Translations under genes and position numbers: made by a program
DNA from: a candidate division WWE3 bacterium
GTDB taxonomy: Bacteria > Patescibacteriota > 4484-211 > GCA-002791395
Direction: 5' to 3'
Assembly (NCBI GenBank): GCA_013335095.1
Contig: JAAXWF010000003.1
Span: 5,960 to 69,959 of the forward strand
Length of the DNA stretch: 64,000 bases
Shown here: positions 2,389-45,356 of the stretch, one piece after another
Layout: each line of letters begins with the position of its first letter
Position numbering within the stretch: the stretch's first letter is position 1
The notes under the pieces: model-generated
Seen by the model: the letters and a program-made list of their open reading frames with translations, nothing else
The model's database searches: none
What the model was told of the DNA's origin: nothing

Positions 2389-2424
2389 AAAAAAAGGGGG
2401 TGATGGCTTGATAGCCACCACCCC
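2389..2424 (-). terminator. rho-independent terminator downstream of the sortase gene
   Basis: A 12-bp stem with 11 of 12 pairs (ggggtgatggct / agccaccacccc), then a run of 7 T on the minus strand. Lies 68 nt after the sortase stop codon. Confidence 0.6.
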
Positions 2425-2492
2425 GGTTTATGGGTACCACCTCATTGTGGTTAATTTCCGCCTTCTGGGGCGGTATCCGTTTTTGTCGTCAC

Positions 2493-5021: not shown

Positions 5022-5260
5022 TGCGCTCTCCTTTTTGCTGTTGACCGATCATCCGAATCGAACTTGGACGAATTACGATGTGTAATCGATAAGTTTTCCT
5101 TTCACTAAGTGGCTTGTTAATGTGCGACCGGCTTAGGGCCGGACACACCCTGATTCTGCGAATCAGGAGATAGCCACCTGCGTGGTTATCTAGTTTAATT
5201 GTATTACTATAGGATTGACGATCAAGCTGTTTAGATCGATATTATGGGTAAAATACTATG

Positions 5261-6822: not shown

Positions 6823-6871
6823 ATCGTCATTATATCTTTGCGGTTAGAAACAAAACTGTTAAAATCGCGGT

Positions 6872-11114: not shown

Positions 11115-11205
11115 TGGCGGAGGAGATGGGATTCGAACCCATGGGCGGTTTTTAGACCGCCACGGTTTAGCAAACCGCTGCCTTGGACCACTCGGCCACT
11201 CCTCC
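11115..11205 (-). tRNA. tRNA-Ser (anticodon GCU), CCA encoded
   Basis: The reverse complement folds as a class II tRNA. It has a 7-bp acceptor stem (GGAGGAG), anticodon stem GCGGT/ACCGT with loop TTGCTAA, a long variable arm, T-loop GGTTCGAATCC and a 3' GCCA. Confidence 0.85.
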
Positions 11206-11291
11206 CTGCATTCATATTTTAGCATACCCTATGAATGATTCTATTTATGTATTTATTGCACATATCTATATAACCTGGTAAACTTTGGAAT

Positions 11292-12020
11292 TTGTGTACC
11301 ATGAAGCCCAGACTAATCGTATTTTCATTATCAAGCTTGGCTGAAAAGCAAGTCAATCCGTATATCTCGGTATCAGCATCCCTTGGCTGTGCATCTGAGT
11401 TCGCATACCTCTTTTCTGATTATCAGAAGGGGAATATATCGTATGGGGATCTATTAAATCGTGAATCGAACTTGTTATATTACAAATATCACGAACAGTT
11501 TGGGCATTATCCTCAAAAAGGAGATCTGGAAATGTTTCTGCCTGAAGTTACTCTAAGCTCGCAATGGCAAACTGCACTCTCTAATATTAACTTACCACAC
11601 ATTACCTTTGCAGTGATTAGTTCGGGGATTTACAAATCCATCCATCTTGATTCATTTGATGGTCTTATTCATCCGTTCAATCGATTTTTGTATAGCGAAG
11701 ACGGCGAGTTCGCCAAAATCGTTGCGACTGTGTCTGGTGATAAGATTGAGGCATTCAATCGAATTGTCGAGAAAACTCATAACCAGATTATTGATACTCT
11801 TTTGGTGGTAAATGACAACAACGATTCTGCTCTCTGTCGCTACGTGCTTGAACTAGGGGGATCAGTGTGCTTTATTGCCCACAAAAATCAAGCCATTGAC
11901 GTTCCCCGGTACGAAAAAATGCACTGGATTGATACTCTTGATAGTTTTGTTGATTTTGTTAAGTCTTCAGAACCTGTTCCGTATCGACGTGTTCCTCGGT
12001 ATCAATTACTTGCTGCCTAA
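11292..12020 (+). CDS. hypothetical protein
   Basis: 242-aa ORF in host-typical composition. No recognisable motifs. Confidence 0.4.
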   Translation: MCTMKPRLIVFSLSSLAEKQVNPYISVSASLGCASEFAYLFSDYQKGNISYGDLLNRESNLLYYKYHEQFGHYPQKGDLEMFLPEVTLSSQWQTALSNINLPHITFAVISSGIYKSIHLDSFDGLIHPFNRFLYSEDGEFAKIVATVSGDKIEAFNRIVEKTHNQIIDTLLVVNDNNDSALCRYVLELGGSVCFIAHKNQAIDVPRYEKMHWIDTLDSFVDFVKSSEPVPYRRVPRYQLLAA

Positions 12021-12076
12021 AGGCAGCGTACATGTTATTTATTGAACATTAAATAGATCGTTGATATAGTTTATCT

Positions 12077-12538
12077 ATGCTAATCTCTGAGATCTACCAT
12101 CCCTATCCGAAAACCATGAGTGGCGATGCCCATATTAGTGACGCTATTGCCGAGCTTATGAAGGATGAAGTAAATGCATTAGTGATACTAAATGACAATG
12201 GTAAGGTCATTGGTGTTTTGTCACTGCAAGATATTGCTGCTGCTACCGTACCTCGACAATTTAGGGAGAATATTCGCATGGCTGCTGCTATGTACAAACC
12301 GGGTTTCTTTACTGAGATGTGCAATCAGCTGAAAGATGTCAAAATCTCTAAGGTAATGCGGCATGAATATATTTCGGTTGGATTTAACGATAATATTATG
12401 GCTGTGACGGCCGATTTTCTAAAGAATGATCTGTATATTGTTCCGGTTATTGAAAATGGAAAACTTATGGGTGTAATTACTCGAACTGAAATTAAGAAGG
12501 CGTTATACGATTCAATGATGAACGGTGATAACGCGTAG
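12077..12538 (+). CDS. CBS-domain pair protein
   Basis: Two CBS-like repeats (NALVILNDNGKVIGVLSLQDI; LYIVPVIENGKLMGVITRTEI). Confidence 0.6.
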   Translation: MLISEIYHPYPKTMSGDAHISDAIAELMKDEVNALVILNDNGKVIGVLSLQDIAAATVPRQFRENIRMAAAMYKPGFFTEMCNQLKDVKISKVMRHEYISVGFNDNIMAVTADFLKNDLYIVPVIENGKLMGVITRTEIKKALYDSMMNGDNA

Positions 12539-12556
12539 AACTTAAGTCGTACAAAT

Positions 12557-13900
12557 ATGATGCTGCCCGAATTTATATTGAACTTGTCGATACCATCAGT
12601 AATAGCTATTTGTGTACTGCTTGTTGTCTATTTTTTTCTGATTACTGAAAAGCTACCAAAAGCATTGGTCGCTGTTCTTGGGGGGATCGCCCTGATAGTG
12701 ATGCAAGTATTTAGTTCCGAAGAAGCATCATCTCAAGAAAATGCATTTCATTTTATTAGTCATAACCTTGATATTTTAGGCTTTGTGATTGGAATGATGA
12801 TTTTAGTCGGTATTGTACGGGAATCGGGTGTGTTTGAAGCAGCAGCTATATGGCTGGTGAAAACAGTTAAAGGTAAGCCCAGAGCTTTATTAATTGCTTT
12901 AGGTTATTTGACCTTAGGTATGACAGCACTCTTTTCGAACATACCAACCATTTTGATTCTGGCACCGGTTGTACTCGTACTCATCAGACAATTGAAACTT
13001 CCAGCTCTGCCATACTTATTTATGATCGTTACTATGGCAAACATCGGGGGAGCTATGACCCCGATCTCAGATCCAACGACGTATTACCAGGCAAAAACAG
13101 TTGGTCTCTCATTTACTGAAGTCGTTACCAACTCTGGACTTATCGTTATGGTACTAAGTGTTGTAAGCACCTTATACATCTTGTTTATCTTCCGTAACGA
13201 ATTTAAGCCGGCAGATAATGCGGAAACTGATATTGCACAATTTAACCCGCTAAAAGCACTGCAAAATCGTTATGTGCTTAAAGTAGGTATCCCTATCGCC
13301 ATTAGCACAATTATTTTGATGGTTCTTAAGGAGAATATCGCCAAGTTTACAGGTGTAATGCTTGATAACGCAACTCTTACGATGGGTGCATCATTTTTGT
13401 GTATTTTACTTTTCCATAAAGAACCTCATAAAGTATTTCGTAACTTAATCGACTGGGAAATAATATTCTTTTTCATTGGACTTTTTGTGGTGGTTGGGGC
13501 ACTTGAGTTTACTCATGTGATTACGCTTTTAGCTAACGGATTAGTTACCTTAACACAAGGAAGCATGACCTATTTGCTTTTGCTTATTTCGATGGGGTCG
13601 GGGATTTTATCTACATTCATTGATAATGTTCCGTATAACATAACCATGGTAAGCGCTATTCAGGAAATGGAGAGGACTGGAATTGCTGTTTATCCGTTGT
13701 GGTGGGCGCTTAACCTAGGCACTTCGATTGGTGGTGCTGGTTCTCCAATCGCAGCTGCATGTAACGTAATTGTTTTCGGCCAAGCTGAGAAGGAAAAGAT
13801 CCACATCAACTTTATGAAATATTTGTTGTTAGCAGCTCCGTTAACGATCATAAACTCTTTAATTACGTTTGGAATTCTGTGGTTGAGGTATCTACAATAA
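12557..13900 (+). CDS. ArsB/NhaD (CitMHS)-type anion/ion permease
   Basis: About 12 TM helices. Motifs GGAMTPISDPTTYY and IDNVPYNITMVSAI resemble the ArsB/NhaD permease superfamily. Immediately downstream of the CBS protein. Confidence 0.5.
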   Translation: MMLPEFILNLSIPSVIAICVLLVVYFFLITEKLPKALVAVLGGIALIVMQVFSSEEASSQENAFHFISHNLDILGFVIGMMILVGIVRESGVFEAAAIWLVKTVKGKPRALLIALGYLTLGMTALFSNIPTILILAPVVLVLIRQLKLPALPYLFMIVTMANIGGAMTPISDPTTYYQAKTVGLSFTEVVTNSGLIVMVLSVVSTLYILFIFRNEFKPADNAETDIAQFNPLKALQNRYVLKVGIPIAISTIILMVLKENIAKFTGVMLDNATLTMGASFLCILLFHKEPHKVFRNLIDWEIIFFFIGLFVVVGALEFTHVITLLANGLVTLTQGSMTYLLLLISMGSGILSTFIDNVPYNITMVSAIQEMERTGIAVYPLWWALNLGTSIGGAGSPIAAACNVIVFGQAEKEKIHINFMKYLLLAAPLTIINSLITFGILWLRYLQ

Positions 13901-13974
13901 TTCTCTGTTGAAATTTCCATTTAAATGTATCGTGTTTTGGTGGTATATATATAAGAATTGAAATATTATTTATT

Positions 13975-13996
13975 TGGCGGAGGAGGTGGGATTCGA
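13975..13996 (-). repeat. 22-nt partial copy of a tRNA-Ser 3' end (CCA, acceptor 3' strand and T-arm half); not a functional tRNA
   Basis: tggcggaggaggtgggattcga is identical to 14087-14108, the 3' end of tRNA-Ser(UGA). The flanking sequence does not form a cloverleaf. Confidence 0.7.
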
Positions 13997-14086
13997 GTTC
14001 CGGGGATGCCCTACTCGGCATCCCGTTCAAATCTAAACTAGATCCTTAAGACAATGAAACCAGGCCAATTGAGAATGTACATTTAA

Positions 14087-14176
14087 TGGCGGAGGAGGTG
14101 GGATTCGAACCCACGATGACGTTGCCGCCATAACGGTTTTCAAGACCGTCGCACTCGACCACTATGCGACTCCTCC
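14087..14176 (-). tRNA. tRNA-Ser (anticodon UGA), CCA encoded
   Basis: Reverse complement GGAGGAGTCGCATAGTGGTCGAG...GACGGTCTTGAAAACCGTT... with anticodon loop CTTGAAA, a long variable arm, T-loop GGTTCGAATCC and a 3' GCCA. Confidence 0.85.
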
Positions 14177-14250
14177 GTAGATATATGAAGCAGATCTAAC
14201 TCAGAAACTATGTGTATTGTAGCATACAGTAGCCTTTAAAGAAGCCTTTT

Positions 14251-15603
14251 CTAAAGCTTTTTAATTGTTTCAATATAGGCATTTACGTCAAATTTACGTT
14301 TTGCGCCGTTATCGTTCATATATCGTATGTTGCCAAAAATCGGTCGTTTATTCCAGGGCCGGTCATGGACCCCACCCATGGACCATGCGATTCCGGCATA
14401 CCCGTTTGGATCTCGTCCATCGAGTTCGTATTTATCATTTAGATATATCGCATACTCCACGGCTTCCTGAGCATTTATCGTCCATTCAAGAATCTTTTTA
14501 CCCCAATACATTCTCATGTATCCATGCATCTTTCCGGTCATGGTCATTTCTTTTTGTGCCGCATTCCACAACTGGTCATGCGTGTTGGCAGACTCCAAGT
14601 CATCAATCGTATACAAATATGGACGTTTATCGGACTCATGCTCTTGCAGCGTTTGTTTTGCCCAATCCGGAAAACCATCGGTAGAATCGTAGTTTGAATT
14701 ATAAAAACAAAAGTTATCACTCAATTCTTTTCGAACGATCAGCTCTTCTAAATACCCTTCTTGAAGGGAGGGCTCTACATTTGACCGTTTTACTTCATTG
14801 GCTATCTCTTGGCTTGAGATATGTCCAAAATGTAGGTACGGAGCAATATTCGACTGACCTTTTCGTGACGGATCATTTCTATCTGCGTCATAATTGGCTA
14901 ATTTCTGTTTAATAAACTCACGAAGTGCATTTCGAGCTGCTTTTTCACCGGGATCAACTCCCTTTACAGTTGTAACCGACCGGTCTATTGTATGCCGTGT
15001 GAGGATATCCTCATACTCAAATGTGTTAGTTGTTGGGGCAATGTTAAAGGGGTGTCGTATAACATCGGGATATTGCGTTAAGAACTCGGGGAGAAGCTTT
15101 TTTATCTTCGGACGAATTGTATAGGCGCCATATTCTTGTTTTGAAGATGTTACCCAAACAGGAACGATATTATGTGCATCAACCTCGACCATGGGGATAT
15201 TTATACTTTGCGCAATATCATTACGCCAACCTCTACCTATTTTCAGCGGCGAAAAGTCGGTAACTAATACACCAGCCGTATTTTTTGTTACATAATGCGT
15301 GACCGTATCGATCGGATTACCGAATAGTAATGTCGCAGAGATGTTTAGTTTTTGGAGTTCGTTAAACGTTTCTTGAATACCATGAAGCATAAAGTCAATA
15401 TTTCGTAAATTTGCATACTGAAATTTAGTATCAAAACTAAAAATTACTGAAAGTGAAGATTTACGGGCAAGGGCCAATTCTTGGGCATATATGAGCGCCC
15501 AATTGTTATGAACGCGTTGATCGCGACTCATCCAATAAATAATAGAACCTTGTTGGTGAATTTGATTTTTATTTAATTGATGGACTCGACGCAGATCAAC
15601 CAT
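14251..15603 (-). CDS. phr: deoxyribodipyrimidine photolyase, class II
   Basis: C-terminal FAD-binding signature TGKMHGYMRMYWGKKILEW, typical of class II CPD photolyases. 450 aa. Confidence 0.8.
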   Translation of the reverse strand: MVDLRRVHQLNKNQIHQQGSIIYWMSRDQRVHNNWALIYAQELALARKSSLSVIFSFDTKFQYANLRNIDFMLHGIQETFNELQKLNISATLLFGNPIDTVTHYVTKNTAGVLVTDFSPLKIGRGWRNDIAQSINIPMVEVDAHNIVPVWVTSSKQEYGAYTIRPKIKKLLPEFLTQYPDVIRHPFNIAPTTNTFEYEDILTRHTIDRSVTTVKGVDPGEKAARNALREFIKQKLANYDADRNDPSRKGQSNIAPYLHFGHISSQEIANEVKRSNVEPSLQEGYLEELIVRKELSDNFCFYNSNYDSTDGFPDWAKQTLQEHESDKRPYLYTIDDLESANTHDQLWNAAQKEMTMTGKMHGYMRMYWGKKILEWTINAQEAVEYAIYLNDKYELDGRDPNGYAGIAWSMGGVHDRPWNKRPIFGNIRYMNDNGAKRKFDVNAYIETIKKL

Positions 15604-15615
15604 GTTGTCTGTATT

Positions 15616-16854
15616 TTATACCGGCAGCTCATCCATTTTGGTTGAATCTTTTTGCAGGAACTTGAATCCATTTACCCAGAAGTACTCTAAACTGTACTTA
15701 AAGTTATATCTTTTCCAAATTGTTAGGATCATTGACCAGACGACTATATTAATAAACCCAAACAATAAACAACCATTAATTGTTTGGGTCCAGTCGGGAT
15801 TTAGTTGTAGTAATGGGATTCGGATCAGTTCTGATACGGTTGTTTCAAGCATATAAATAGTTAAGCTTATCCGGCTAAATTGGGTTAGTAATGATAGTCT
15901 ATTCGTGAGCCATTCCATTGGTTCAAGCACCAAATACGTGACCGATACGAGTATTAGGAATATACCCAGTTCACCGTTCGTTTTGAAATACCAAAAATAA
16001 TCAGGGGTTGATATCGTTTTTTCAAAGTTCATCATCCCTGCTACTCCGTATATAAGAAAAATAACTCCCAAGGGAATGATTACTTTTTTAAGCAATCCTT
16101 TATGTCCGTTATAGATCATTAATCCTATTAGCGCACCAAAGAATCCATACGATACATAGGGGAGGAGTGGGTAGGGATTTGCGAGTGTGAATCCTAGGAT
16201 TGTTGCCGTTATAAAATTGTGGTGTTCTATTGTTGTGGGTAATAAGTGGTACAAGGGTACCCGAACGAACGACAGTACCATAATAACGATGCCGGCTACT
16301 GCGAAGACCATGTATTGTTGGGCCGATGATAGAGCCTTCTTATTTTTGTTCATGAAATATAGGATGAGCGAAACGATAAATAAGTTGAGAGCGATAGTCG
16401 AAATTGAAGATCCATCAAAATATTTAGAAATCTCTGGAGTCGAGAAATGCAACGTTCGTAATACTCGGGCGATGATTGTTAAGTCGGGTTGGTTGTTAAC
16501 AAAATCATTGTTCCATCGACCCAAGACGATATTTAGAATGTAATGGAGGATTAAATAAACCCCTAAAGTAATCGATGCTGTTTTAATACTGAATGATGGG
16601 GATTTATCCTGAATTCGGTTCACCGTTAAGAGTGAGTTAATAACCGCTGAGTAAACAATGAATATGCCTCCCCATAGAGCCATAAAGCTCATAATTACGA
16701 CAATGATGGGCGGGTTACTAAAATCAATTTTATGTATGTTCGCAAAGTTATAAATCGATGAGTGAAAAAGGATGATCAATATGAGGGCAAATCCCCTTAA
16801 TACATCTAGTGATTTGATACGGTGTTGTGTGTGAATATTAGTTTCCTGCATCAA
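15616..16854 (-). CDS. DUF418/DUF1624-like polytopic membrane protein (acyltransferase-3 superfamily-like)
   Basis: N-terminal LDVLRGFALILIILFHS motif and about 10 TM helices. Confidence 0.45.
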   Translation of the reverse strand: MMQETNIHTQHRIKSLDVLRGFALILIILFHSSIYNFANIHKIDFSNPPIIVVIMSFMALWGGIFIVYSAVINSLLTVNRIQDKSPSFSIKTASITLGVYLILHYILNIVLGRWNNDFVNNQPDLTIIARVLRTLHFSTPEISKYFDGSSISTIALNLFIVSLILYFMNKNKKALSSAQQYMVFAVAGIVIMVLSFVRVPLYHLLPTTIEHHNFITATILGFTLANPYPLLPYVSYGFFGALIGLMIYNGHKGLLKKVIIPLGVIFLIYGVAGMMNFEKTISTPDYFWYFKTNGELGIFLILVSVTYLVLEPMEWLTNRLSLLTQFSRISLTIYMLETTVSELIRIPLLQLNPDWTQTINGCLLFGFINIVVWSMILTIWKRYNFKYSLEYFWVNGFKFLQKDSTKMDELPV

Positions 16855-18208
16855 ATTCTCTTTTTATACGTATCAATTTCTGTGAGCGTGTATTTACTTC
16901 TGGCTTTTCAAATGCGATATCAACGTGGGGTTGCTGGCATTTATACTCAGTAAATACATTCATTATCGCATTTTTTAACTTCTGTTGGTCAAATGAAGTC
17001 GGCGCGATTCTCGATCGTAATTGAATTCTAACATAAATTTCGGTAGGACTCTTTTGAATCGCCTGGTATTCTTCGATGTCCTCAGAAGAAGATATTATCG
17101 CTCGACTAATATAATCGGGAAAAATAAACTGCCAAGATTCTGATCCAATCGTATGACCCCAAAACATGTCATCTGATCTTCCTTGAATGCGCTCAATAAC
17201 TCGAAATGATGATCCGCAGGTGCAAGGTGTCTTGCAAATGGTAATAATGTCATTTAATTCATATCTGATGATCGGCTGGGATCGTTTGTGTAGATCTGTT
17301 ACGAGCAATTTGTGACAAGGTTGTCCGAGTGGTGTCGGTGACCCATCTTGATTGAGTGTTTCGACAAGAACTAAATCTTCATTAATGTGTAAGTTGTCAT
17401 GTTTACATGAAATCGCAATAGCTCCTTCGGTGCATTTATAGATTTCATTAACTGAACAATTAAATATCTTAGTAAGGTACTCACGTACATCTTGATACAA
17501 CACTTCAGCATATGAGACGAGTTTAAGTGGCTTGATCTTAAGTCTATTTTGCTCCTGCTCCTGCGCTAGAAGTTTGAGCATCGACGGTGGGGCAGAGACC
17601 AGGTTGGGTTTAAGATCGTTTAATTGACGAACAATATCCTGCATTGGTTGAAGCTGAGTAATATAGGTAAGTTTGTGACCAAACATATTTAAGTTGAATG
17701 CAGGTGTGCTTACTCTAAGGATAAATGCTAAATTGATCTTCTGGTTTTTAGGAAAATTGAATCGGGCGAAAAACGCTGCTTTTAAGTAGGATTCTTCGCT
17801 ATGTGTTAATATTTCTACTCCTTTATTTCCACTTGTACCTGATGACATCCCAATATTTATATTGTTCAACCGTCGTGAATAGTCCCGTGTTTTTTCAATA
17901 TCAAGACAAAAGTTGATTATTTCATCTTTTGTTAATCCAAGAGTATTGTACTCAGTTAAGTTGTCCATCATGATTTTTTTATTCACTGTGGGAAGATGCG
18001 CGAAGTCGTTTTTATTATAGTTTGCGTAATGCTTTTTAAAAAATGATGAGTGTGCCGAAGCGTATTCAACTATCTTCTGGGTTTTTCTCTTCTGGTAAAA
18101 TTGTATATCTTTGGTTTTCCAACTATAGAAACGATATCGGCATAATAAATAAAAGAGTCCAAAATATTTCGTTTCAAAATCATCAAATACCCGCTCAATA
18201 AGTGCCAT
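16838..18208 (-). CDS. CapK / phenylacetate-CoA-ligase-like adenylate-forming enzyme
   Basis: Adenylation P-loop MSSGTSGNKG, 456 aa, F390-synthetase/PaaK-like architecture. Overlaps the downstream membrane-protein gene. Confidence 0.55.
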   Translation of the reverse strand: MALIERVFDDFETKYFGLFYLLCRYRFYSWKTKDIQFYQKRKTQKIVEYASAHSSFFKKHYANYNKNDFAHLPTVNKKIMMDNLTEYNTLGLTKDEIINFCLDIEKTRDYSRRLNNINIGMSSGTSGNKGVEILTHSEESYLKAAFFARFNFPKNQKINLAFILRVSTPAFNLNMFGHKLTYITQLQPMQDIVRQLNDLKPNLVSAPPSMLKLLAQEQEQNRLKIKPLKLVSYAEVLYQDVREYLTKIFNCSVNEIYKCTEGAIAISCKHDNLHINEDLVLVETLNQDGSPTPLGQPCHKLLVTDLHKRSQPIIRYELNDIITICKTPCTCGSSFRVIERIQGRSDDMFWGHTIGSESWQFIFPDYISRAIISSSEDIEEYQAIQKSPTEIYVRIQLRSRIAPTSFDQQKLKNAIMNVFTEYKCQQPHVDIAFEKPEVNTRSQKLIRIKREFDAGN

Positions 18209-18298
18209 TATTTACATTGTACTATTTCTTGCGTTTTAAGTTGTGATGCAAATAGGCTTGATGATTTTGGGGACGGCTTTTTCAGTTTTTTGAGTAAC

Positions 18299-18385
18299 TG
18301 GCGGAGGGAGGGGGATTCGAACCCCCGCAGACTTACGCCTACACGCTTTCCAAGCGTGCTCCATAAACCACTCGGACATCCCTCC
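18299..18385 (-). tRNA. tRNA-Ser (anticodon GGA), CCA encoded
   Basis: Reverse complement GGAGGGATGTCCGAGTGG...CACGCTTGGAAAGCGTG... with anticodon loop TTGGAAA, a long variable arm, GGTTCGAATCC and a 3' GCCA. Confidence 0.8.
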
Positions 18386-35426: not shown

Positions 35427-36944
35427 TTGCTATTTCCGGTAGGGCATCATATAATGACGGATATGTTGAATTATAGACGTCCTCCCATTGTTGTTGTGAT
35501 GGGACATGTAGACCACGGTAAGACCAGTATTTTAGATAAAATCCGTAATACACAAATACAACAGAAAGAAGCGGGCGGTATAACCCAATCAATTGGAGCG
35601 TATCAAGCTACCTATAATGGTGACGTTATAACATTTATAGATACACCAGGACACGAGGCTTTTACTCAGATGCGTAGCCGTGGAGGACAAATCGCCGATA
35701 TTATTGTATTAGTAGTAGCCGCAGATGATGGGGTCATGCCTCAAACAAAAGAAGCGATCCAACACGCAAAATTTTCTGGAGCACGCATTATTGTTGCCAT
35801 AAATAAGATTGATTTAGTTGGAGCAAACCTCAATAAGGTTAAGAAACAATTATCTGATAACGGCATCCTTATAGAGGAATACGCAGGAGACGTTCCCGTG
35901 GTATTAACATCAGCTACAACTGGAGCGGGTATTGACGATCTTTTAAAACAAATTGTTACCTCATCGAAGCAATTAGATCTGCAGGTCTCTGACGAAAAAA
36001 ATGATTTCATAGCTAAAATTGTAGAAAGTTATTTAGATAACCGCCGTGGTCCAATTGCTAACATGATTGTGATATCAGGTCGTTTAGCGGTACGTGACGT
36101 AGTACTAACGGACCAACATGTTGCAAAGGTTCGATCCATGCGTGATTGGCTTGGAGTTGAAGTCAAAGAAGTCTTACCTGGTACACCCGTAGAATTACTT
36201 GGATTTAGCGCTGTTCCGACTGTTGGTGCAGAGATTCGAATAGCTGAGAATATAAAAGATGCCGAAAAGCTAGTCGCGGAGAAACAACGTGATATTAAGA
36301 ATTTTACCCAGTTATCTGCTCAAGACCGGATTAGACGTGCGTTTTTTGAACCTCAAGTACGTGAAATCCCAGTGATCATTAAAGCTAGCTCTCAAGGTTC
36401 GTTGGAGGCATTAATTGAATCGGTTAACCTCCTTTCAAACGAACAGGTACGTATTAAAGTCCTTTCACAATCTGTGGGAAGTATTAGTGAGAATGATATC
36501 GTTAGCGCAATACCTATGAAGGCGTTTGTTATTGGTTTTGGGGTAGGCGTTGAAAAGAATGCCGAAACACTTGCAATTAAAGAGCGAATTATCTGTCGTC
36601 GTTATGAAATTATTTATCGACTTCTTGAAGAGCTACAGGAGGTTATTGGCATGGAAATTGAGGATTTGATCCCTCAGCCAACTGGAAAAGCTAAAGTTAA
36701 GCAGTTATTTGAACTTACAAACGGTCAGGTCGTTGCGGGGTCTGAAGTTACTGAGGGGTATTTGAAAAAGGGTTCAAAAGTATCGATAGTTCGACCTTAT
36801 GGTGAAAATATCGAGGGTAAAATCGCTTCGTTAAAGAAAAATAAGGATGATGTTGGGCAGGTAAAGCGAGGCGAAGAGTGCGGTATCCTGTTAGAGGGTG
36901 ATATCCAAATCTTAGTCGGAGACATTATTGAGGCTTTTAAATAA
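35427..36944 (+). CDS. infB: translation initiation factor IF-2 (short form lacking the N-terminal extension)
   Basis: G-domain VVVMGHVDHGKTS, DTPGHEAF and NKID. C-terminal beta-barrel domains. Only 505 aa. Confidence 0.85.
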   Translation: MLFPVGHHIMTDMLNYRRPPIVVVMGHVDHGKTSILDKIRNTQIQQKEAGGITQSIGAYQATYNGDVITFIDTPGHEAFTQMRSRGGQIADIIVLVVAADDGVMPQTKEAIQHAKFSGARIIVAINKIDLVGANLNKVKKQLSDNGILIEEYAGDVPVVLTSATTGAGIDDLLKQIVTSSKQLDLQVSDEKNDFIAKIVESYLDNRRGPIANMIVISGRLAVRDVVLTDQHVAKVRSMRDWLGVEVKEVLPGTPVELLGFSAVPTVGAEIRIAENIKDAEKLVAEKQRDIKNFTQLSAQDRIRRAFFEPQVREIPVIIKASSQGSLEALIESVNLLSNEQVRIKVLSQSVGSISENDIVSAIPMKAFVIGFGVGVEKNAETLAIKERIICRRYEIIYRLLEELQEVIGMEIEDLIPQPTGKAKVKQLFELTNGQVVAGSEVTEGYLKKGSKVSIVRPYGENIEGKIASLKKNKDDVGQVKRGEECGILLEGDIQILVGDIIEAFK

Positions 36945-38021: not shown

Positions 38022-39665
38022 GTGGATTTAAAAATCGTCGAATTAATTGTCTTCTTTGCCTCATCGATCCTAACTATCACTTTTACGTTTATTGGGATTC
38101 CGAATCGTAATCTCCAGCAATTTATCGTCATTCTGATGGTTGTTCTATTATTTTTATTTAAAAAGATACTTTCGGGAGATACTGTCCTGACTCGTAAACC
38201 CAAATTATACGGTGCGGTTTTATTTATTTGTTCATTATTTGTTCAGCTATTAATTTTCTCTACCGGAGGGTTTTATAGTCCCTTCTTAATCGTTATTCAC
38301 TTATTTACACTAGGAGTTGGTTTCTTGATGTCCCTACGATCTTCAATGATTTTTCTACTGTTAACTATGACAATATTGGTAGGCCAATTGAGACTGGATC
38401 CTATTATTAAGTCGTTATTTGATAGCGATCCTTGGTCTGTCGTACTCTACTTCTTGTCGTTCGTCGCAATTATTCCTTTGTCACAGTTGCTGGTTCGTAA
38501 ATATCACCTAAAAGAGAAAATTACAGAATTTTTAAGTCAGCAGATTCAATTAAGTGAGATGAGAGAAGAGTCAATTATGCAGGGCTTAAGTGATCTTGTT
38601 ATCGTTGTTAACCGTGATCTAAAAATAATCTCGGTGAATGAATCTGTTCGACGACTATTAGATTTAACAAACGCTCAAATAATTTTCCATCCGCTTTTAG
38701 ACGTAATTACTTTGGAGAGTCAAAGTGGGGAAGTGGTAAATAAGGAATCGCTTTCTGTTGACAAAATTTTAAACGATAAATCGGCACGTATGGTCGATGG
38801 CCTGTACCTTAAGCCAAAAGTTGATGCAAAGGTAATACCAATAACAATTCAAATGCGACCAATCGTTAACTTGAATGGTCAAGTAGAACAGGTCGTATGT
38901 GTATTAAATGAAGCCAAGGAGGATGCCATTGATGAAGAACATATCCGCCAGTTGTCAAAAGCAAAAACTGAATATGAAGAACGCTTAGCTCAATTTAAAC
39001 AAACCCTTCAAGAAAAAGGGTTATCTGAATTAAATCGTCAACTTGAAGTAATACATAAAACTGAAGAAGATTTATTAACGTCTCTAGAGCTCGATGAAGG
39101 CGCTATCCATCCAAGAATGACTTTAGTTAATTTGGTCGGGCTTATCCGAAAAGTTGTCGTGATGCAAAGTGATTATTCTTTAGGTTTTGGAGTTCGTATA
39201 AATGCATTATTGCCACAAAATGATTTAACTATGCCTGCAGATGGCGTCACTAATCCCAAAGGAAGTACCGTGCCCTATCTTGTTCATCCCGAAGCAGAAT
39301 TAACTATTCCTGCTGACGCCGATTGGTTATCATTATTGTTAGTAAAATTATTAGATATATCTATATTGCTAAGTTCGGGCACCGTTGATCGAACAGTCAA
39401 TGTTCAATTGCTCCCGCTTGAATCCTCGTTGACGATACGAATCTTAACTTCTTTCAGGGCGTTGTCAGAAGAAGAAAAGAAGAGCTTGTTTAATATGTAT
39501 TATGGTGCGTTAGCCAAACAGACTAATCTTACTTATGGGAGTGGGCTCGAAGGGTATTTAGTAAAAACAATTTCCCGTCAATTAAGTATACAGGTGGAAC
39601 CAGAACAAGATAACGATACTGGATATTTAGTATTTCGAATAAATTTTAAACGTAGTATTAAATAA
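38022..39665 (+). CDS. membrane sensor histidine kinase (orphan; PAS-like plus HATPase_c)
   Basis: About 5 N-terminal TM helices, a PAS-like segment (DLVIVVNRDLKIISVNESVRRLLD), an H-containing dimerisation helix (EEHIRQLSKAKTEYEERL) and a C-terminal G2-box-like GSGLEGYLVKTISRQL. No response regulator adjacent. Confidence 0.5.
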   Translation: MDLKIVELIVFFASSILTITFTFIGIPNRNLQQFIVILMVVLLFLFKKILSGDTVLTRKPKLYGAVLFICSLFVQLLIFSTGGFYSPFLIVIHLFTLGVGFLMSLRSSMIFLLLTMTILVGQLRLDPIIKSLFDSDPWSVVLYFLSFVAIIPLSQLLVRKYHLKEKITEFLSQQIQLSEMREESIMQGLSDLVIVVNRDLKIISVNESVRRLLDLTNAQIIFHPLLDVITLESQSGEVVNKESLSVDKILNDKSARMVDGLYLKPKVDAKVIPITIQMRPIVNLNGQVEQVVCVLNEAKEDAIDEEHIRQLSKAKTEYEERLAQFKQTLQEKGLSELNRQLEVIHKTEEDLLTSLELDEGAIHPRMTLVNLVGLIRKVVVMQSDYSLGFGVRINALLPQNDLTMPADGVTNPKGSTVPYLVHPEAELTIPADADWLSLLLVKLLDISILLSSGTVDRTVNVQLLPLESSLTIRILTSFRALSEEEKKSLFNMYYGALAKQTNLTYGSGLEGYLVKTISRQLSIQVEPEQDNDTGYLVFRINFKRSIK

Positions 39666-39669
39666 CCAT

Positions 39670-40269
39670 ATGAAATATGTTCTAGTCGTGGGTCTTTCTT
39701 TTTATTTAATTATATTTCCATCTGTTTCTAGAGCAGAGGTGCGTGGTCGTATTTTTTCGGTTCCAATTTCATTTAGCTCTAATGAGTCGGTGACTGCAGT
39801 TGATTATATTGTTGATGTTAAAGGGGGGGAGGTTATCTCATTCAATTGTGGTTCTATCGAATTCACGAAGCTGATCCAGCAAGAAAATCGTTGCGTTTCT
39901 TTTAATCCACATGGTTCACGGTCCTCGACCATTGGTACTGTAAAAGTTCGAAGCGAGTCTGACGCAGCAGAACTTGTGGTTAACGTAACTGGCATGATGA
40001 GTAATGCTTTCGGTACAGAACCAACGTTGCGAGTATTTAACGGTGGTCGTTTTCCTATTACCGATCAAGAAGTTACGCATAGGATGGGTGATTTAAATGG
40101 CGATTCTCAAATAACTATTCACGATTTCGGTATATTTGCTGGTTATTATGCCAAGCGTGATATAGATAATGATTCTGCTGTCGAATTGCAGATTGCTGAT
40201 CTCGATAATAACGGTATTATATCGATCTTTGATCTGGGCAGGTTAGTTGAATTATTTCGTTCACGCTAG
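39670..40269 (+). CDS. secreted protein: signal peptide, conserved ~95-aa two-Cys module, dockerin (type-I-like, two Ca-binding repeats)
   Basis: Signal peptide MKYVLVVGLSFYLIIFPSVSRA. Module VPISFSSNESVTAVDYIVDVKGGEVISFNCGS...CVSFNPHG. Dockerin repeats GDLNGDSQITIHDFGIFAGYY and ADLDNNGIISIFDLGRLVELF. Confidence 0.7.
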   Translation: MKYVLVVGLSFYLIIFPSVSRAEVRGRIFSVPISFSSNESVTAVDYIVDVKGGEVISFNCGSIEFTKLIQQENRCVSFNPHGSRSSTIGTVKVRSESDAAELVVNVTGMMSNAFGTEPTLRVFNGGRFPITDQEVTHRMGDLNGDSQITIHDFGIFAGYYAKRDIDNDSAVELQIADLDNNGIISIFDLGRLVELFRSR

Positions 40270-40334
40270 TGTCTTAATATTCATAAAATGATTTATTGAC
40301 TCACTAATTTCAAAATGTTACGATGAACTAAGTT

Positions 40335-40892
40335 ATGCAAAGAAAGATTAAAAATAACTCAGTATTATTCGCAACCATAAGCCTTCTATCAACTGTTTTT
40401 TATATTAATTCGGCAAATCTCGTACATGCACAAGATACAGTAGATGTTCCAATCGTATTTGAATCATCTGATCCTATTACTGCTGCTGATTTTAGTGTCG
40501 AAGTTAACGGTGGTACATTAATTTCACTAAAATGTGGTGGCGATCATTTCCAATCAATTGATACAAGCATGCAGAATAAGTGTATTGTATTTAATCCATC
40601 AGGTGCGACGAGTGGTACGCTTGGTACAGCTACTGTTAGAAGTACGAATGGCGGAAAAGCAACCGTAACCCCTAGTGGAACGTTTAGTACAGCCGAAGGC
40701 GTTGAACCATCTCACTCAACGATCCGCGGAACAGACACTGCAAATGTTAATACAAATACCAATACTCAAGATCCAGTACGCGACAGTCAAGCGATTTATA
40801 TGTTCATCGTAGTTGCGTTAGTATTGGTGGTTTTAGCCATCGTGGCTGCTTACTTCTTTTTGCACAAAAAGGAATCTTCATCGACTCTGTAA
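40335..40892 (+). CDS. secreted protein: signal peptide, conserved two-Cys module, N/T-rich linker, C-terminal TM anchor
   Basis: Module VPIVFESSDPITAADFSVEVNGGTLISLKCGGDHF...CIVFNPSGATSGTLGTATV. C-terminus IYMFIVVALVLVVLAIVAAYFFLHKKE. Confidence 0.7.
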   Translation: MQRKIKNNSVLFATISLLSTVFYINSANLVHAQDTVDVPIVFESSDPITAADFSVEVNGGTLISLKCGGDHFQSIDTSMQNKCIVFNPSGATSGTLGTATVRSTNGGKATVTPSGTFSTAEGVEPSHSTIRGTDTANVNTNTNTQDPVRDSQAIYMFIVVALVLVVLAIVAAYFFLHKKESSSTL

Positions 40893-40912
40893 TTGATAAA
40901 AGCGGTCACGAA

Positions 40913-41593
40913 ATGTTTATCAATATACGTATGTCTAAAAAAAAATTATCATTTGTAGTTGTACTTGTTTTAATCTTCTTTGCTTTTATCGAAGTTAAGC
41001 ATTCAATGGCTGAATCAATTGGTGATACCTTTAATTCAACCATTACCTTTTCTGCAAGTGAAAATGTTACTGCGGCAGATTTTACGGTTACTGTCTCTGG
41101 CGGGACTCTAAACAGTCTTACGTGTGGCGGCTCTGGATTTTCTAATTTAGCGAGTAGCGGAAATAATTGTGTGGTATTTAATCCAATTGGTGCTACTAGC
41201 GGCACTCTCGCAACCGTGAATATAACCGCTACAATGGAAGGTACATTAACTGTCGTCGTCACCGGAACCCTAAGTACCTCAGGCGGCAGCCCTCCAACAA
41301 CCGGACAATTAATAGGTGAATCCTTTACCATAACTGCTTCAACCATTACGCCTACAGCGACGCCGAGCCCAACAGTTATGCCATCTGTAACAACGGCATT
41401 AACACTGACTCCATCTGCTACAGCGACACCCACAACTACGATTAGTGATGCTCCAACCGTAATGCCTACGCCGACATTGAGCGGTATTACCCGTAATTTG
41501 CCCGTTACCGGAACTTCGAGCGTAACTTCCTTATTAATCGTAATTATTACATCTGCTTTATCAATCGGGTATTTGCTGTTAAAACAAGCGTAA
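40913..41593 (+). CDS. surface protein: signal peptide, conserved two-Cys module, T/P linker, LPVTG sortase sorting signal
   Basis: Module ITFSASENVTAADFTVTVSGGTLNSLTCGGSGF...CVVFNPIGATSGTLATV. TPTATPSPT linker. LPVTG at nt 41498-41512, followed by a hydrophobic tail ending KQA. Alternative start ATG 40931. Confidence 0.7.
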   Translation: MFINIRMSKKKLSFVVVLVLIFFAFIEVKHSMAESIGDTFNSTITFSASENVTAADFTVTVSGGTLNSLTCGGSGFSNLASSGNNCVVFNPIGATSGTLATVNITATMEGTLTVVVTGTLSTSGGSPPTTGQLIGESFTITASTITPTATPSPTVMPSVTTALTLTPSATATPTTTISDAPTVMPTPTLSGITRNLPVTGTSSVTSLLIVIITSALSIGYLLLKQA

Positions 41594-41600
41594 ATTCCTA

Positions 41601-43061
41601 TTGACAATCAATAGTCAAAACAGATATTGTATTTACATCAGTATGAAAACGAGTTCACCTTCTGCACATAGAAATAATGAAAATTGGTCTGGACTTGTTA
41701 AAAAAGAACATCAAATCTTAAGTGTAATTATTGCTTCTACTGGTGGATTATTAGTACTGTTCTTTCTAGTAGCGTTTACTTTCCCCCTGCGTTCCAAATT
41801 ATTAGAATCTCTCTATCCAAAACAAAATAGTGAGGCATTTAGTGATGTCGTTGTTTTAGGTAATACCGTCGTTAGCGTTCCAATTGAACTTCAGGCGACT
41901 GAAAATGTAACTGCAATTGATGTTGATGTTAGTGTTGCTGGAGGAACTCTTGAAGGATTGACTTGTGGGGGTGCTAGTTTTGAAAATACATCAAAAAGCA
42001 CTTCAAGCAAGTGTGTTATTTTTAGCCCGTCGGGTGCTCAAAATGGTGTTGTAGCAATGGCTTTAGTAAAGTCAGGAACTAGTGGTACTCTTGCCGTGAA
42101 TGTTGACGGAAATCTCAGTACTGCTGATGGGAATGCCCCTACTCAAGGAAATGTGTATGGAGTCGTATTTAGAATAGTACAATCATTAACAACGACGGAT
42201 AAATTATATGTACCTGTTTCATTTAATGCGAGCGAAGCTGTGACAGCCGCAGATTACACCTTGTCAATTACAGGTGGCGAGTTGCTTCAGACCTCTTGTG
42301 GTGGAAGTGGATTCCGTGAGATCCTTCATAACAATAATAATTGTGTTGTGTTCAATGTGAACGGTGTAACTCAAGGAGTTATCGGATCTGCCGTTGTCAG
42401 ACCTACGACAACTTCTACATCTTTGAGTGTGAATATAACTGGTACTTTAAGTACTGAAAGTGGTCGAGCTCCTTCAACTGGTACATTCAATAATTTAACG
42501 ATACCAGTAAATCGTGCAGCTAGTGCTACGCCGACAAACATGCCCTCGCCGACTGTCACGGTTACTCCATCGCCAACGGTTGTACCAACAGCTACAACCG
42601 CACCGACACCATCGACTGCACCCGGAACATTCGGGGTCGGTAATATTACCTCACCAACATACAGCGAAACTGTAGGGGTACAAGGTACAAAAGAAGCTAA
42701 TACCTCAATTTGGCTCAATGGTACACAAATAGTGACTTCCAATACATCGACTACATGGAGTACTAATGTAACTCTTGATCTGGGTACCAATACTCTTGTC
42801 TTTTCACAGCATGCTGGTGGCGGCACTAATCGGGATTTAACACAGACTGTTGATCGACGTGGTCTTGGGGATATCAATGGCGATGAAGTTGTAAATGTCT
42901 TTGATGTCGGAATCTTTGCTGGACATTATAATGAGACAAACGTAACCGACAACAGTGTCTCAGAAGCACGACTTAGCGATATGCGAAAAAATGGAGTCAT
43001 AGATGTCTTTGATCTCGGAATCCTCGCAGGTAGATACGGAAGCCAATACACATATAATTAA
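41601..43061 (+). CDS. secreted protein: two tandem copies of the two-Cys module, T/P linker, Ig-like N-x-T-rich domain, C-terminal dockerin
   Basis: Modules at about nt 41871-42190 and 42207-42486 (VPIELQATENVTAIDVDVSVAGGTLEGLTCGG...CVIFSPSG; VPVSFNASEAVTAADYTLSITGGELLQTSCGGSGF...CVVFNVNG). Dockerin repeats GDINGDEVVNVFDVGIFAGHY and SDMRKNGVIDVFDLGILAGRYG. Confidence 0.7.
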   Translation: MTINSQNRYCIYISMKTSSPSAHRNNENWSGLVKKEHQILSVIIASTGGLLVLFFLVAFTFPLRSKLLESLYPKQNSEAFSDVVVLGNTVVSVPIELQATENVTAIDVDVSVAGGTLEGLTCGGASFENTSKSTSSKCVIFSPSGAQNGVVAMALVKSGTSGTLAVNVDGNLSTADGNAPTQGNVYGVVFRIVQSLTTTDKLYVPVSFNASEAVTAADYTLSITGGELLQTSCGGSGFREILHNNNNCVVFNVNGVTQGVIGSAVVRPTTTSTSLSVNITGTLSTESGRAPSTGTFNNLTIPVNRAASATPTNMPSPTVTVTPSPTVVPTATTAPTPSTAPGTFGVGNITSPTYSETVGVQGTKEANTSIWLNGTQIVTSNTSTTWSTNVTLDLGTNTLVFSQHAGGGTNRDLTQTVDRRGLGDINGDEVVNVFDVGIFAGHYNETNVTDNSVSEARLSDMRKNGVIDVFDLGILAGRYGSQYTYN

Positions 43062-43072
43062 TACGACTTAAA

Positions 43073-43711
43073 ATGTCTAATCTTTATCAACGTTTTTTCA
43101 TCGAACAAAATGTTATTACAAAATTAGGAATCTTTTATTTCACAAGCGCTGTTCTATCGTTTACGTATATTTCACTCACGTTTCCATTTTTTAACAATCA
43201 AAATAGTTCTCTTTATAAAAAATCACAAGCATCCGCAAATCAAGCACCGGCTGTAGTCGTTGTCCCAAGTTCAAGTCATGAATATAACAGTGATCATTCA
43301 ATATTTACCGTAGTCATTCCATATTCATTTAGTTATTCTGAATCAGTTAACATATATGGAACTGTATCAGAAGGGTATAGTCTCTCTATAAACAATAACA
43401 AAATTGATCCATATGAAGATCAAAGATGGGATTCCCAGGTAATATTGTATGGTCGCGATAACGTTATTACTATCACTGCATTTGATAATTTGGGGAACGA
43501 AGTTGAAGCATTAAATGTGCCTATTCAAAAGAGAACGAAGTGTGATATAAATGAAGATGAAGCGGTGGATAGATCCGACATTGAGCTAATTAACGGTATT
43601 GTTTCAGGATTAATCACACCAGTTATTAGCCAATTAGAAAGTGCTGATTGTAATCAAGATGGTATCGTAAATAGTAGCGATATATCGATTGTAACCAGTT
43701 TAGCGAATTAA
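43073..43711 (+). CDS. membrane-anchored protein with a unique middle domain and a C-terminal dockerin-like module
   Basis: N-terminal hydrophobic segment LGIFYFTSAVLSFTYISLTF. Dockerin-like repeats KCDINEDEAVDRSDIELINGIVSG and ADCNQDGIVNSSDISIVTSLA. Lacks the two-Cys module. Confidence 0.6.
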   Translation: MSNLYQRFFIEQNVITKLGIFYFTSAVLSFTYISLTFPFFNNQNSSLYKKSQASANQAPAVVVVPSSSHEYNSDHSIFTVVIPYSFSYSESVNIYGTVSEGYSLSINNNKIDPYEDQRWDSQVILYGRDNVITITAFDNLGNEVEALNVPIQKRTKCDINEDEAVDRSDIELINGIVSGLITPVISQLESADCNQDGIVNSSDISIVTSLAN

Positions 43712-43713
43712 TT

Positions 43714-44298
43714 ATGAGAAATACTGCCTTATTAAGTTCTTTTGTAGCTTTATTTTTAACAACTGCGTTATTAGTACCATCAGTTACCCAGGCTGAAACC
43801 GTCGGGAGTACTATTTCTGTTCCAATTACATTTACTGCGTCTGATGCTGTTACTGCTGCTGACTTTACCGTTAGTGTAACAAATGGTCAGCTGCAAGAGA
43901 TCAGTTGTGGCGGTAGCGGTTTCAGTAGCTTGAGTAGTAATGGCTCTCAGTGTGTTGTATTTAATCCCTCTGGTGCAACAAGCGGAACACTCGCAACAGT
44001 TACAGTGTTAGCTAACACTGCAGGCACACTAACTGTTAGTGCTGTTGGAACCTTAAGTACAGCAGGTGGGGTTGCCCCAACTACTGGACAGATTAATGGT
44101 TCGACCTATACTATTACGGGAAGCGGTGGTGCAACTGCTACTTCTACACCAGCTCCATCCGCCTCAACTTCTCGAACACCCACTCCGACTGCAATTGGTG
44201 CGTTACCAAGTAGCGGTGCTGTTGATGCGACCTTAATATACTCTCTTATTATCGCTTCTCTACTGGGTAGTGGCTTTTGGTTATTCCGTAAACTTTAG
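43714..44298 (+). CDS. surface protein: signal peptide, conserved two-Cys module, linker, LPSSG-type sorting signal with hydrophobic domain and RKL tail
   Basis: Module VPITFTASDAVTAADFTVSVTNGQLQEISCGGSGFSSLSSNGSQCVVFNPSGATSGTLATVTV. LPSSG at nt 44203-44217, then a hydrophobic stretch, then RKL. Confidence 0.7.
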   Translation: MRNTALLSSFVALFLTTALLVPSVTQAETVGSTISVPITFTASDAVTAADFTVSVTNGQLQEISCGGSGFSSLSSNGSQCVVFNPSGATSGTLATVTVLANTAGTLTVSAVGTLSTAGGVAPTTGQINGSTYTITGSGGATATSTPAPSASTSRTPTPTAIGALPSSGAVDATLIYSLIIASLLGSGFWLFRKL

Positions 44299-44342: not shown

Positions 44343-45356
44343 TTATGCTACAACTTCGTGTAGTTCTTGATTCTCTTGTGTTTGTTTTTCTTCTTTTCCA
44401 CTAAATACTTCACCGTTATTACTCACAATATCGATCTTGTAGCCAGTTAATTTTGATGCTAGTCTTACGTTTTGACCTTCCTTACCTATAGCTAACGACA
44501 GCTGATCATCAGGTACTTCAACCTGGGCTGCTCTTTTTTCGTCGTCAATTATTACATCACTAACATGTGCTGGTGATAGGGCATTAATTATAAACTTAGT
44601 TACGACGTCACTCCACAAGATAATGTCCATTTTTTCACCATTTAATTCATTGGTGACTGCCTGTACTCGTACACCACGTTGTCCGACCATTGATCCTACC
44701 GGATCAACCCCATCTTGCACACTCATCACGGCGATTTTAGTTCGGCTACCTGGTTCTCGTGCAATATTTTTAATCACAACTGCCTTGCTTTGAATTTCTG
44801 GTACTTCTAGTTCAAATAATGCGCGTACAAGATCTGCATCCGAACGAGATACGATAATATCGTGATGATTTTCTCGTTCAACGATTTTTTTAACATATAC
44901 TTTAAGCCTTTGATTATTTTGATAGCTTTCAGCAAAAACTTGTTCTTCGCGAGGCATCACGGCAATCGTTCGTCCGACATCTACTAACCAACTACCGCGT
45001 TCAAAACGTTGCAACATACCTGGTACGACCCGTCCTATTTTTTCTTGAAATTCTTCAAGAGCAGCATTTTTTTCTGCTTCTCGTACACCTTGAAGGATCA
45101 CTTGTTTGGCTGTCTGGGCTGCAATACGACCAAATCCAGGAGGAGTAATATCATCTCCATCTTTTGATAATGCGACTTCACCGGATTCTGGATCAATCGT
45201 TACGGTTACGCTTTCAACCTCTTCGTCTGCTAATGGATAATCTTTGCGATATGCGGCAATCATAGCCTTTTCTAAAGTTGACATTATATCTTCAGGTTTT
45301 ATCCCCCGTTCACTTGCTATTTGGCGAATGGCCGCCATAAATTCTGATTTAATCAT
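44343..45356 (-). CDS. nusA: transcription termination/antitermination factor NusA
   Basis: N-terminal NusA domain, S1 and tandem KH regions. 337 aa, so the short form without the acidic repeat. Confidence 0.85.
   Translation of the reverse strand: MIKSEFMAAIRQIASERGIKPEDIMSTLEKAMIAAYRKDYPLADEEVESVTVTIDPESGEVALSKDGDDITPPGFGRIAAQTAKQVILQGVREAEKNAALEEFQEKIGRVVPGMLQRFERGSWLVDVGRTIAVMPREEQVFAESYQNNQRLKVYVKKIVERENHHDIIVSRSDADLVRALFELEVPEIQSKAVVIKNIAREPGSRTKIAVMSVQDGVDPVGSMVGQRGVRVQAVTNELNGEKMDIILWSDVVTKFIINALSPAHVSDVIIDDEKRAAQVEVPDDQLSLAIGKEGQNVRLASKLTGYKIDIVSNNGEVFSGKEEKQTQENQELHEVVA

Follow-up and report, generated by a model that had tools for sequence, protein, structure and literature searches.

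A gene cluster for a probable non-cellulosomal cohesin-dockerin scaffold at the surface of a WWE3 bacterium

Organization of the six-gene locus

Six co-directional genes, here called P1 to P6, lie on the forward strand of a 64-kb stretch of DNA (the window, taken at its full length) from a 260-kb contig of a WWE3 bacterium (Katanobacteria), a member of the candidate phyla radiation (CPR). Their products combine a shared two-cysteine module with dockerins, immunoglobulin (Ig)-like domains and surface anchors, and all six are registered at NCBI as 'hypothetical protein' (NTV31238.1-NTV31243.1, HGA91_04670-04695). The intergenic gaps from P1 to P6 are 65, 20, 7, 11 and 2 nt, and the genes are found where a first-pass annotation, made from the sequence alone, had placed six plus-strand genes for small secreted proteins (Table 1). 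The longest open reading frame (ORF) of P3 opens at 40913 and the NCBI start lies at 40931; likewise, the P4 ORF opens at 41601 and the NCBI start lies at 41643. None of the six proteins contains a catalytic Pfam domain.

Comparison of P4 and P6 with their orthologues on a related contig, L004 (related contigs are denoted by L numbers and family proteins by four-digit P numbers), yielded 72% identity for each pair, the P4 orthologue being P0002. The proportions of nonsynonymous and synonymous differences (pN and pS) were ~0.19 and ~0.75, respectively. That pN is far below pS identifies P4 and P6 as genuine genes subject to purifying selection. When all six frames of the window were scanned, matches to the module and dockerin profiles were confined to genes of the locus, those to the dockerin profile to P1, P4 and P5; a strict dockerin-loop pattern applied to the whole window matched in P1 and P5 only. 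A scan for promoters and terminators returned chance-level signals only.

Table 1 Features of the six-gene locus and of its neighbours (window positions).
Feature	Position (nt)	Strand	Length (aa)	Description
infB	35427-36944	+	505	short IF-2
PAS membrane protein (NTV31237.1)	38022-39665	+		multi-pass; PAS 33.9 bits; histidine-kinase-like C-terminal region
P1	39670-40269	+	199	short signal peptide
P1 module	39748-40062	+		two-Cys module
P1 dockerin	40087-40257	+		
P2	40335-40892	+	185	signal peptide; charged C-terminal tail
P2 module	40434-40748	+		two-Cys module
P2 transmembrane helix	40791-40862	+		C-terminal
P3 (NCBI start)	40931-41593	+	220	signal peptide; Pro/Thr-rich linker
P3 module	41024-41335	+		two-Cys module
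P3 sorting motif	41498-41512	+		LPVTG, followed by hydrophobic tail and KQA
P4 (NCBI start)	41643-43061	+	472	long leader; Pro/Thr linker
P4 leader transmembrane helix	41715-41783	+		
P4 leader motif	41784-41837	+		PLRSKLLESLYPKQNSEA
P4 first module	41862-42179	+		two-Cys module
P4 second module	42198-42512	+		two-Cys module
P4 Ig-like domain	42630-42860	+		C-terminal part
P4 dockerin	42867-43040	+		C-terminal part
P5	43073-43711	+	212	
P5 leader	43115-43237	+		
P5 Ig-like domain	43301-43534	+		
P5 dockerin	43541-43708	+		
P6	43714-44298	+	194	signal peptide; Ser/Thr/Pro linker
P6 module	43807-44118	+		two-Cys module
P6 sorting motif	44203-44217	+		LPSSG, followed by hydrophobic tail and RKL
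nusA	44343-45356	-		

The two-cysteine module

The shared module occurs in five of the six proteins, as originally described, and its length is ~105 residues rather than the ~95 first assigned. P4 carries two copies and P5 none. The six copies are 35-40% identical, share 15 invariant columns that include both cysteines, and match the family profile with domain E-values of 1e-34 to 5.5e-43, which establishes that the sharing noticed at first pass is true paralogy. A search of 1.84 billion representative proteins with the module family yielded 49 matches at E ≤ 1e-3, 34 of them at E ≤ 1e-10. Across these 49 family copies the two cysteines are the sole invariant columns, and the obvious expectation is that they would be joined in a disulfide bond.

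Modelling with AlphaFold2 from the six paralogues alone gave a confident, all-β structure for the module, with a predicted local distance difference test (pLDDT) score of 95.2 and a predicted template modelling (pTM) score of 0.83. Comparison of this model with known structures using Foldseek supports a cohesin fold, as the strand layout had led the first-pass annotation to guess. In the model, the module exhibits the nine-stranded jelly-roll β-sandwich that characterizes cohesins. The matched cohesin chains comprise 135-144 residues, and thus the module does not reach the usual cohesin size of ~140 residues.

The direct sequence relationship to Pfam Cohesin (PF00963) is faint in the window itself, where P6 is the only protein to show it. 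Its module scored 16.4 (E 0.011) to 16.9 bits, below the gathering cut-off of 24.1. Among the 49 module copies, Pfam Cohesin is the commonest Pfam match (8/49; best E 3.3e-6), and one family member, P0016, scored 28.5 bits over profile positions 10-133 of 139. Since P0016 exceeds the cut-off and shares 54% identity with the P6 module, it provides a transitive sequence link between the module and Pfam Cohesin, in accord with the modelled fold. Taken together, sequence and model indicate that the module is a trimmed cohesin-fold domain and very probably a divergent homologue of cohesins.

A search of PDB sequences with the six-module profile returned nothing significant. A longer cohesin-like domain encoded at locus L003 aligned with the module over 26 columns only (E 0.05) and had no PDB sequence match. 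Seven of the 49 members also matched GspH pseudopilins (best E 0.006). These matches were dismissed as noise because they cover the last 40 profile positions only and the prepilin leader is absent.

Dockerins and Ig-like domains

P1, P4 and P5 end in dockerins, each comprising two tandem 12-residue EF-hand-like loops with an associated helix. Loops were judged by Asp/Asn at positions 1, 3, 5 and 9 and Asp at position 12, and five of the six loops possess canonical Ca ligands. The P1 loops read D-N-D-T-D and D-D-N-S-D at positions 1, 3, 5, 9 and 12, and the Gly that precedes the first Asp is kept in the P1 and P4 dockerins. The P5 dockerin carries two cysteines. Pfam Dockerin_1 (PF00404) has a cut-off of 22.9 bits, which P5 passes with 33.0 bits and below which P1 (19.4 bits) and P4 (19.3 bits) fall. 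Relatives of the window proteins scored 26.0 (P0010), 24.6 (P0014), 25.7 (L003) and 37.4 bits (the P5 orthologue of L004), and the P1 orthologue at L012, P0021, exceeds the Pfam threshold in precomputed matches. A profile built from 14 dockerin sequences of the family (A5) retrieved 90 proteins, nearly all of them PF00404 members. The dockerins proposed at first pass are therefore genuine, given the P5 score and the near-exclusive retrieval of PF00404 proteins by the family profile.

In both P4 and P5 an Ig-like domain directly precedes the dockerin, an arrangement that we take to be reminiscent of X-dockerin dyads. The Ig-dockerin region of P5 shows homology to the C-terminal portion of P4 (23% identity, E 1e-6). 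P5 shares only 36% identity with its L004 orthologue (L004 1520-2170), compared with 72% for the P4 and P6 pairs on either side; judged by these sequence identities, the candidate Ig-dockerin cargo P5 is evolving much faster than the scaffold.

Anchors and leaders

The three proteins that lack a dockerin end in surface anchors of the kinds described at first pass, namely a transmembrane (TM) helix in P2, LPVTG in P3 and LPSSG in P6. The P2 helix is hydrophobic and is followed by a charged tail. By direct reading, the sorting motifs of P3 and P6 are each followed by 23 hydrophobic residues and then by KQA and RKL, respectively. The TIGR01167 LPXTG_anchor profile gave 13.3 bits for P3 and 13.1 for P6, both below the cut-off of 15.9. 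Sorting motifs among the relatives are LPQSG, LPVSG, LPRTG, LPKSG, LPNSG, LPDTG and LPDAG.

Except for P1, all dockerin-bearing proteins of the window, L002, L003 and L014 share a long N-terminal leader. It consists of a TM helix with F(T/S)(F/L)P at its end, followed by xxxxLLxxL(Y/F)PK and, about five residues on, by an invariant Ala. Enzyme cargo proteins of the relatives match the P4 leader in tblastn searches with E-values down to 6e-8. The anchored proteins that carry cohesins only have ordinary short signal peptides instead of the long leader. The leader could be a specialized signal that is cleaved, could anchor the protein in the membrane or could act as a sortase-acceptor motif. Within it, L(Y/F)PK lies between the TM helix and the Ala, a putative signal-peptidase -1 residue, and may thus be removed together with the leader.

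Family distribution and synteny

The family is small. A word-indexed protein search found almost only the window's own proteins, and it was the exhaustive search of representatives that recovered the family. Individual family proteins were encountered on one or two metagenomic contigs each. A metagenome scan with the module detected no loci, a scan with the dockerin detected three, all devoid of the two-Cys module, and a scan of GTDB genomes detected one locus. Architectures were counted among the 41 family representatives that were retrieved. Nine of the 41 combine module and dockerin in the same polypeptide, ten combine the module with an LPx[ST]G-type anchor, and in 14 the module is accompanied by a C-terminal TM helix. 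The last class includes a group (L001 117-1487, which encodes P0025, and P0022, P0024, P0026 and P0030-P0032) in which a single module is followed by a Pro/Thr linker, a ~300-residue domain and the TM helix. A conserved 'KHFT(T/K)FF'-like motif is found in this domain, which has no Pfam match. The LPx[ST]G-anchored modules form the most conserved class, with 58-70% identity to the P6 module, and the P2 orthologue class represented by P0012 shows 62% identity in the module.

Dockerin and module occur in the same locus in the window and in L002, L003, L004, L012 and L014. The relatives keep the locus at an equivalent position. At L012, infB, yceG, a gene for a PAS protein and the P1 orthologue are followed by three more module genes, and at L004 the orthologues of P4, P5 and P6 occur in the same order. 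In the window, infB and nusA bracket the locus on opposite strands, and yceG/mltG, the PAS gene and the six genes stand between them; the order infB, yceG, PAS and locus is the one kept in L012.

The gene for the PAS membrane protein ends 4 nt upstream of P1. Its C-terminal region has no HisKA or HATPase Pfam match. Homologues are encoded next to module genes in L001 (29% identity, E 2e-65), L003 (E 4.6e-143) and L012. Based on this synteny, the PAS protein may serve the system as a sensor or regulator, although no response regulator was observed in its vicinity.

Dockerin-bearing cargo in related loci

In L002 (1567-3960) and L014 (4374-6785), a gene for a phytase-dockerin-metallophosphoesterase fusion adjoins genes for TM- and LPx[ST]G-anchored modules. 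The phytase of the fusion is of the β-propeller type and the metallophosphoesterase is calcineurin-like; the L014 gene product scored 195 bits against Phytase and 27.7 bits against Dockerin. In these two loci the dockerin is the sole element that ties enzyme genes to anchor genes. L014 also contains two genes that combine a dockerin with an alginate-lyase-like domain, and L003 encodes a dockerin-bearing β-helix protein. In P0042 (L009 1303-3870), two modules, an Ig-like domain, a dockerin and a metallophosphoesterase are fused in a single polypeptide, and the gene that follows encodes a Pel9A/chondroitinase-B-like β-helix protein. A weak Malectin match was also noted among the related loci. 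The recurring fusion with metallophosphoesterase suggests, from sequence, that phosphate may be scavenged by surface-tethered enzymes in the relatives. The lack of a catalytic domain noted at first pass holds for the six proteins of the window; the stress laid on it, and on a role as lattice or adhesin alone, is weakened by the relatives, whose module genes adjoin genes for dockerin-bearing enzymes and β-helix proteins.

Proposed architecture and alternative interpretations

With the anchors as described, genuine dockerins and a sequence link to cohesins, a self-assembling surface complex is the natural interpretation. We consider it likely that the six genes form a scaffold cluster for a non-cellulosomal cohesin-dockerin system displayed by the WWE3 cell at its surface. 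In the proposed arrangement, P3 and P6 would be exported by their ordinary signal peptides and fixed by a sortase to peptidoglycan through LPVTG and LPSSG, and P2 would be held in the membrane by its C-terminal helix. Each of the three would display one cohesin as a socket on the outside of the cell. P1 (cohesin-dockerin) and, as the main one, P4 (cohesin-cohesin-Ig-dockerin) would serve as adaptors, their Ca2+-dependent dockerins plugging into the anchored cohesins and their own cohesins offering further sockets, so that a branched, multi-layer assembly could be built. P5, with an Ig-like domain and a dockerin and no module, would be non-enzymatic cargo. Because the sockets of the relatives adjoin genes for dockerin-tagged enzymes, such a system presumably serves in general to retain secreted enzymes and binding proteins on the surface of the cell.

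Several observations weigh against this interpretation. All window modules are below the Pfam Cohesin threshold, the best of them at 16.4-16.9 bits, and no cohesin was found when PDB sequences were searched with the 49-sequence module profile. The hhalign comparison of the same profile with the CipA cohesin was weak (E 0.017, probability 2.7%); the CipA sequence used scored 134.8 bits against PF00963. Compared with canonical cohesins the module lacks ~35 residues, and therefore the dockerin-binding face may not be preserved. On their own the P1 and P4 dockerins remain below the Dockerin_1 cut-off, and the second Ca loop of P4 (DMRKNGVIDVFD) has Arg at Ca-ligand position 3. The model of full-length P1 (cohesin plus dockerin) reached a pLDDT of 54, with values below 50 in the dockerin part, where three helices were modelled. 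LPSSG is a non-canonical sorting signal, and a motif search of the 64-kb window detected no sortase TLxTC-type motif in a plausible ORF. In addition, tblastn searches with the relatives' enzyme cargo matched dockerin and leader segments of the window only. As these are the sole matches, enzyme cargo is absent from the window, and any enzyme cargo of this genome must then be encoded outside it.

An alternative explanation, which we hold to be unlikely, is that the modules serve as generic Ig-like stalks or adhesin domains in surface proteins of the MSCRAMM, Als or fibrillar-adhesin type and are themselves the parts that bind host or environmental ligands. The dockerins would then bind other things, such as glycans or canonical cohesins encoded elsewhere, and their co-occurrence with the modules would reflect no more than a shared location at the surface. 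The Ig-fold adhesins and pilins that Gram-positive bacteria anchor by sortase (UafA, ClfA, RrgB, BcpA) gave structural scores below those of cohesins. They also differ from the present system in that here no sortase lies in the cluster, the pilin motif resides in no folded domain and the module is tied to dockerins. Much less probable is a covalent polymer assembled by a sortase in the manner of a minimal Gram-positive pilus, in which the threonine or serine of the P3 LPVTG and P6 LPSSG signals would be linked to the conserved Lys of the L(Y/F)PK leader motif of P4 and P5. That motif does resemble the YPKN pilin motif; however, it lies between the TM helix and the invariant Ala, which looks like a signal-peptidase -1 site, two of the leaders are without the Lys, and the motif search of the window, the cluster included, detected no sortase gene. 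Pilin folds scored well below cohesins, a pilin-type E-box or isopeptide signature was not seen, and the cluster contains neither a class C sortase nor CnaA/CnaB-type pilin domains with a pilin motif.

A classical cellulosome for the degradation of plant cell walls is hardly credible, even though cohesin-fold modules, dockerins and a layout with sortase-anchored scaffoldins are in keeping with it and other CPR genomes have been proposed to harbor 'cellulosome-related' clusters (PMC3812714). No glycoside hydrolase, carbohydrate-binding module (CBM) or scaffoldin with more than two cohesins is encoded in the window or in the related loci examined, and the cargo of the relatives consists of phytase/metallophosphoesterase, alginate-lyase-like and β-helix proteins. 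Dockerin-bearing glycoside hydrolases and a CBM-bearing multi-cohesin scaffoldin are thus both missing, and no protein has more than two modules.

The non-cellulosomal cohesin-dockerin interpretation may also be extended, to a degree that we consider rather doubtful. The two-Cys mini-cohesin would then be the socket of a CPR-specific minimal rack for enzymes and adhesins that is controlled by the PAS sensor. P2, P3 and P6 would form the anchored layer, P1 and P4 the adaptors, and dockerin-bearing cargo would be exported through the long leader; this cargo would include Ig-like binders in the present locus, and phytase/phosphoesterase as well as polysaccharide lyases in the relatives. Such a rack would allow these ultra-small bacteria to adhere to a host or biofilm surface and to scavenge phosphate and sugars from it. 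If so, it would also provide a template with which the missing cohesin partners of essential dockerin proteins of Patescibacteria could be sought.

CPR bacteria (Patescibacteria) rely on other cells, and little is known about the organization of their surface. In one CPR lineage, the locus appears to supply a complete and compact toolkit of anchors, adaptors and cargo that standard annotation missed altogether. The two-Cys module is among the smallest of the cohesin-fold domains seen here and, provided that it binds dockerins, could constitute a useful minimal part for the engineering of protein assemblies. The dockerin-phytase of the relatives points to tethered phosphate scavenging, which would be unusual for a cohesin-dockerin system.

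Comparison with known systems

The first-pass annotation knew of no named system with this architecture; the absence of comparable systems that this implies is not supported. Two papers (PMC9012536, PMC10066038), both of which cite Peer et al. 2009, document non-cellulosomal cohesins and dockerins across bacteria and archaea, and the sca cluster of Ruminococcus flavefaciens is a known set of linked genes for non-catalytic scaffoldins in which ScaE, with its single cohesin, is attached covalently to peptidoglycan (PMC3821032). That cluster, with the adaptors ScaC, ScaA and ScaB, CttA and the sortase-anchored ScaE, is the closest organizational analogue, and the likeness extends to the anchor logic of P3 and P6. 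In contrast to the sca proteins, the cohesin described here has ~105 rather than ~140 residues and an invariant Cys pair. There are at most two cohesins per protein, and one cohesin is TM-anchored. The dockerin proteins possess a conserved long TM leader, a PAS membrane protein is co-conserved, the likely cargo is non-cellulolytic and the host is a small-genome CPR bacterium. The non-cellulosomal cohesins of Archaeoglobus fulgidus (2xdh) and of Clostridium perfringens toxins and glycosidases (2vo8, 2jh2, 2w1n) are of full length and recognized by Pfam, whereas the modules of the window escape Pfam, are marked by the putative disulfide and are encoded in a putative dedicated anchor/adaptor operon.

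Among CPR bacteria, the Saccharibacteria epibiont Southlakia epibionticum, the one epibiont amenable to genetics, has an essential envelope protein with a dockerin domain, SEML1_0315, which is thought to act in host interaction (Wang et al., PMC10633639). The likeness lies in a dockerin-bearing envelope protein of a CPR bacterium; that paper does not mention cohesin and names no dockerin partner. With 49 representatives, the two-Cys family is so small that the module is probably not the general partner of Patescibacterial dockerins. A WWE3 genome has been reported to encode sortases and sorted proteins, and 'cellulosome-related' genes were noted in other CPR genomes (Kantor et al., PMC3812714). 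No published link of cohesins to WWE3/Katanobacteria was found.

Other observations

A different pair may be present on L006 (2-4727, GC 0.32), an unrelated contig among the three loci detected with the dockerin, which encodes a giant HYR-repeat protein that ends in a similar dockerin of the 'DxFDLGIFAG' flavour. The product of the next gene appears cohesin-like by eye and has a C-terminal domain of the type IX secretion system (T9SS) type, which suggests a Bacteroidota origin. If this reading by eye is right, L006 offers another adjacent non-cellulosomal plug-socket pair. The related contig L002 encodes a heliorhodopsin.

The GC content of window positions 1-5200 is 0.54-0.64, compared with 0.37-0.42 elsewhere. 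The ORFs of this region have no Pfam match, and neither rRNA nor an Rfam family was detected in it. Contig L005, from an independent Logan assembly, overlaps with the window from ~3553 on and stops inside the 1-5200 region. Foreign DNA, an unusual gene or an assembly join could each account for this segment. On the reverse strand, positions 11115-18385 contain three tRNA-Ser genes (GCT, TGA, GGA) within ~7 kb, the only tRNAs of the window. Positions 5261-10225 harbor a carotenoid-type gene set comprising a GT2 glycosyltransferase, a UbiA prenyltransferase, a polyprenyl synthase, a squalene/phytoene synthase and a CrtI-like amino-oxidase.

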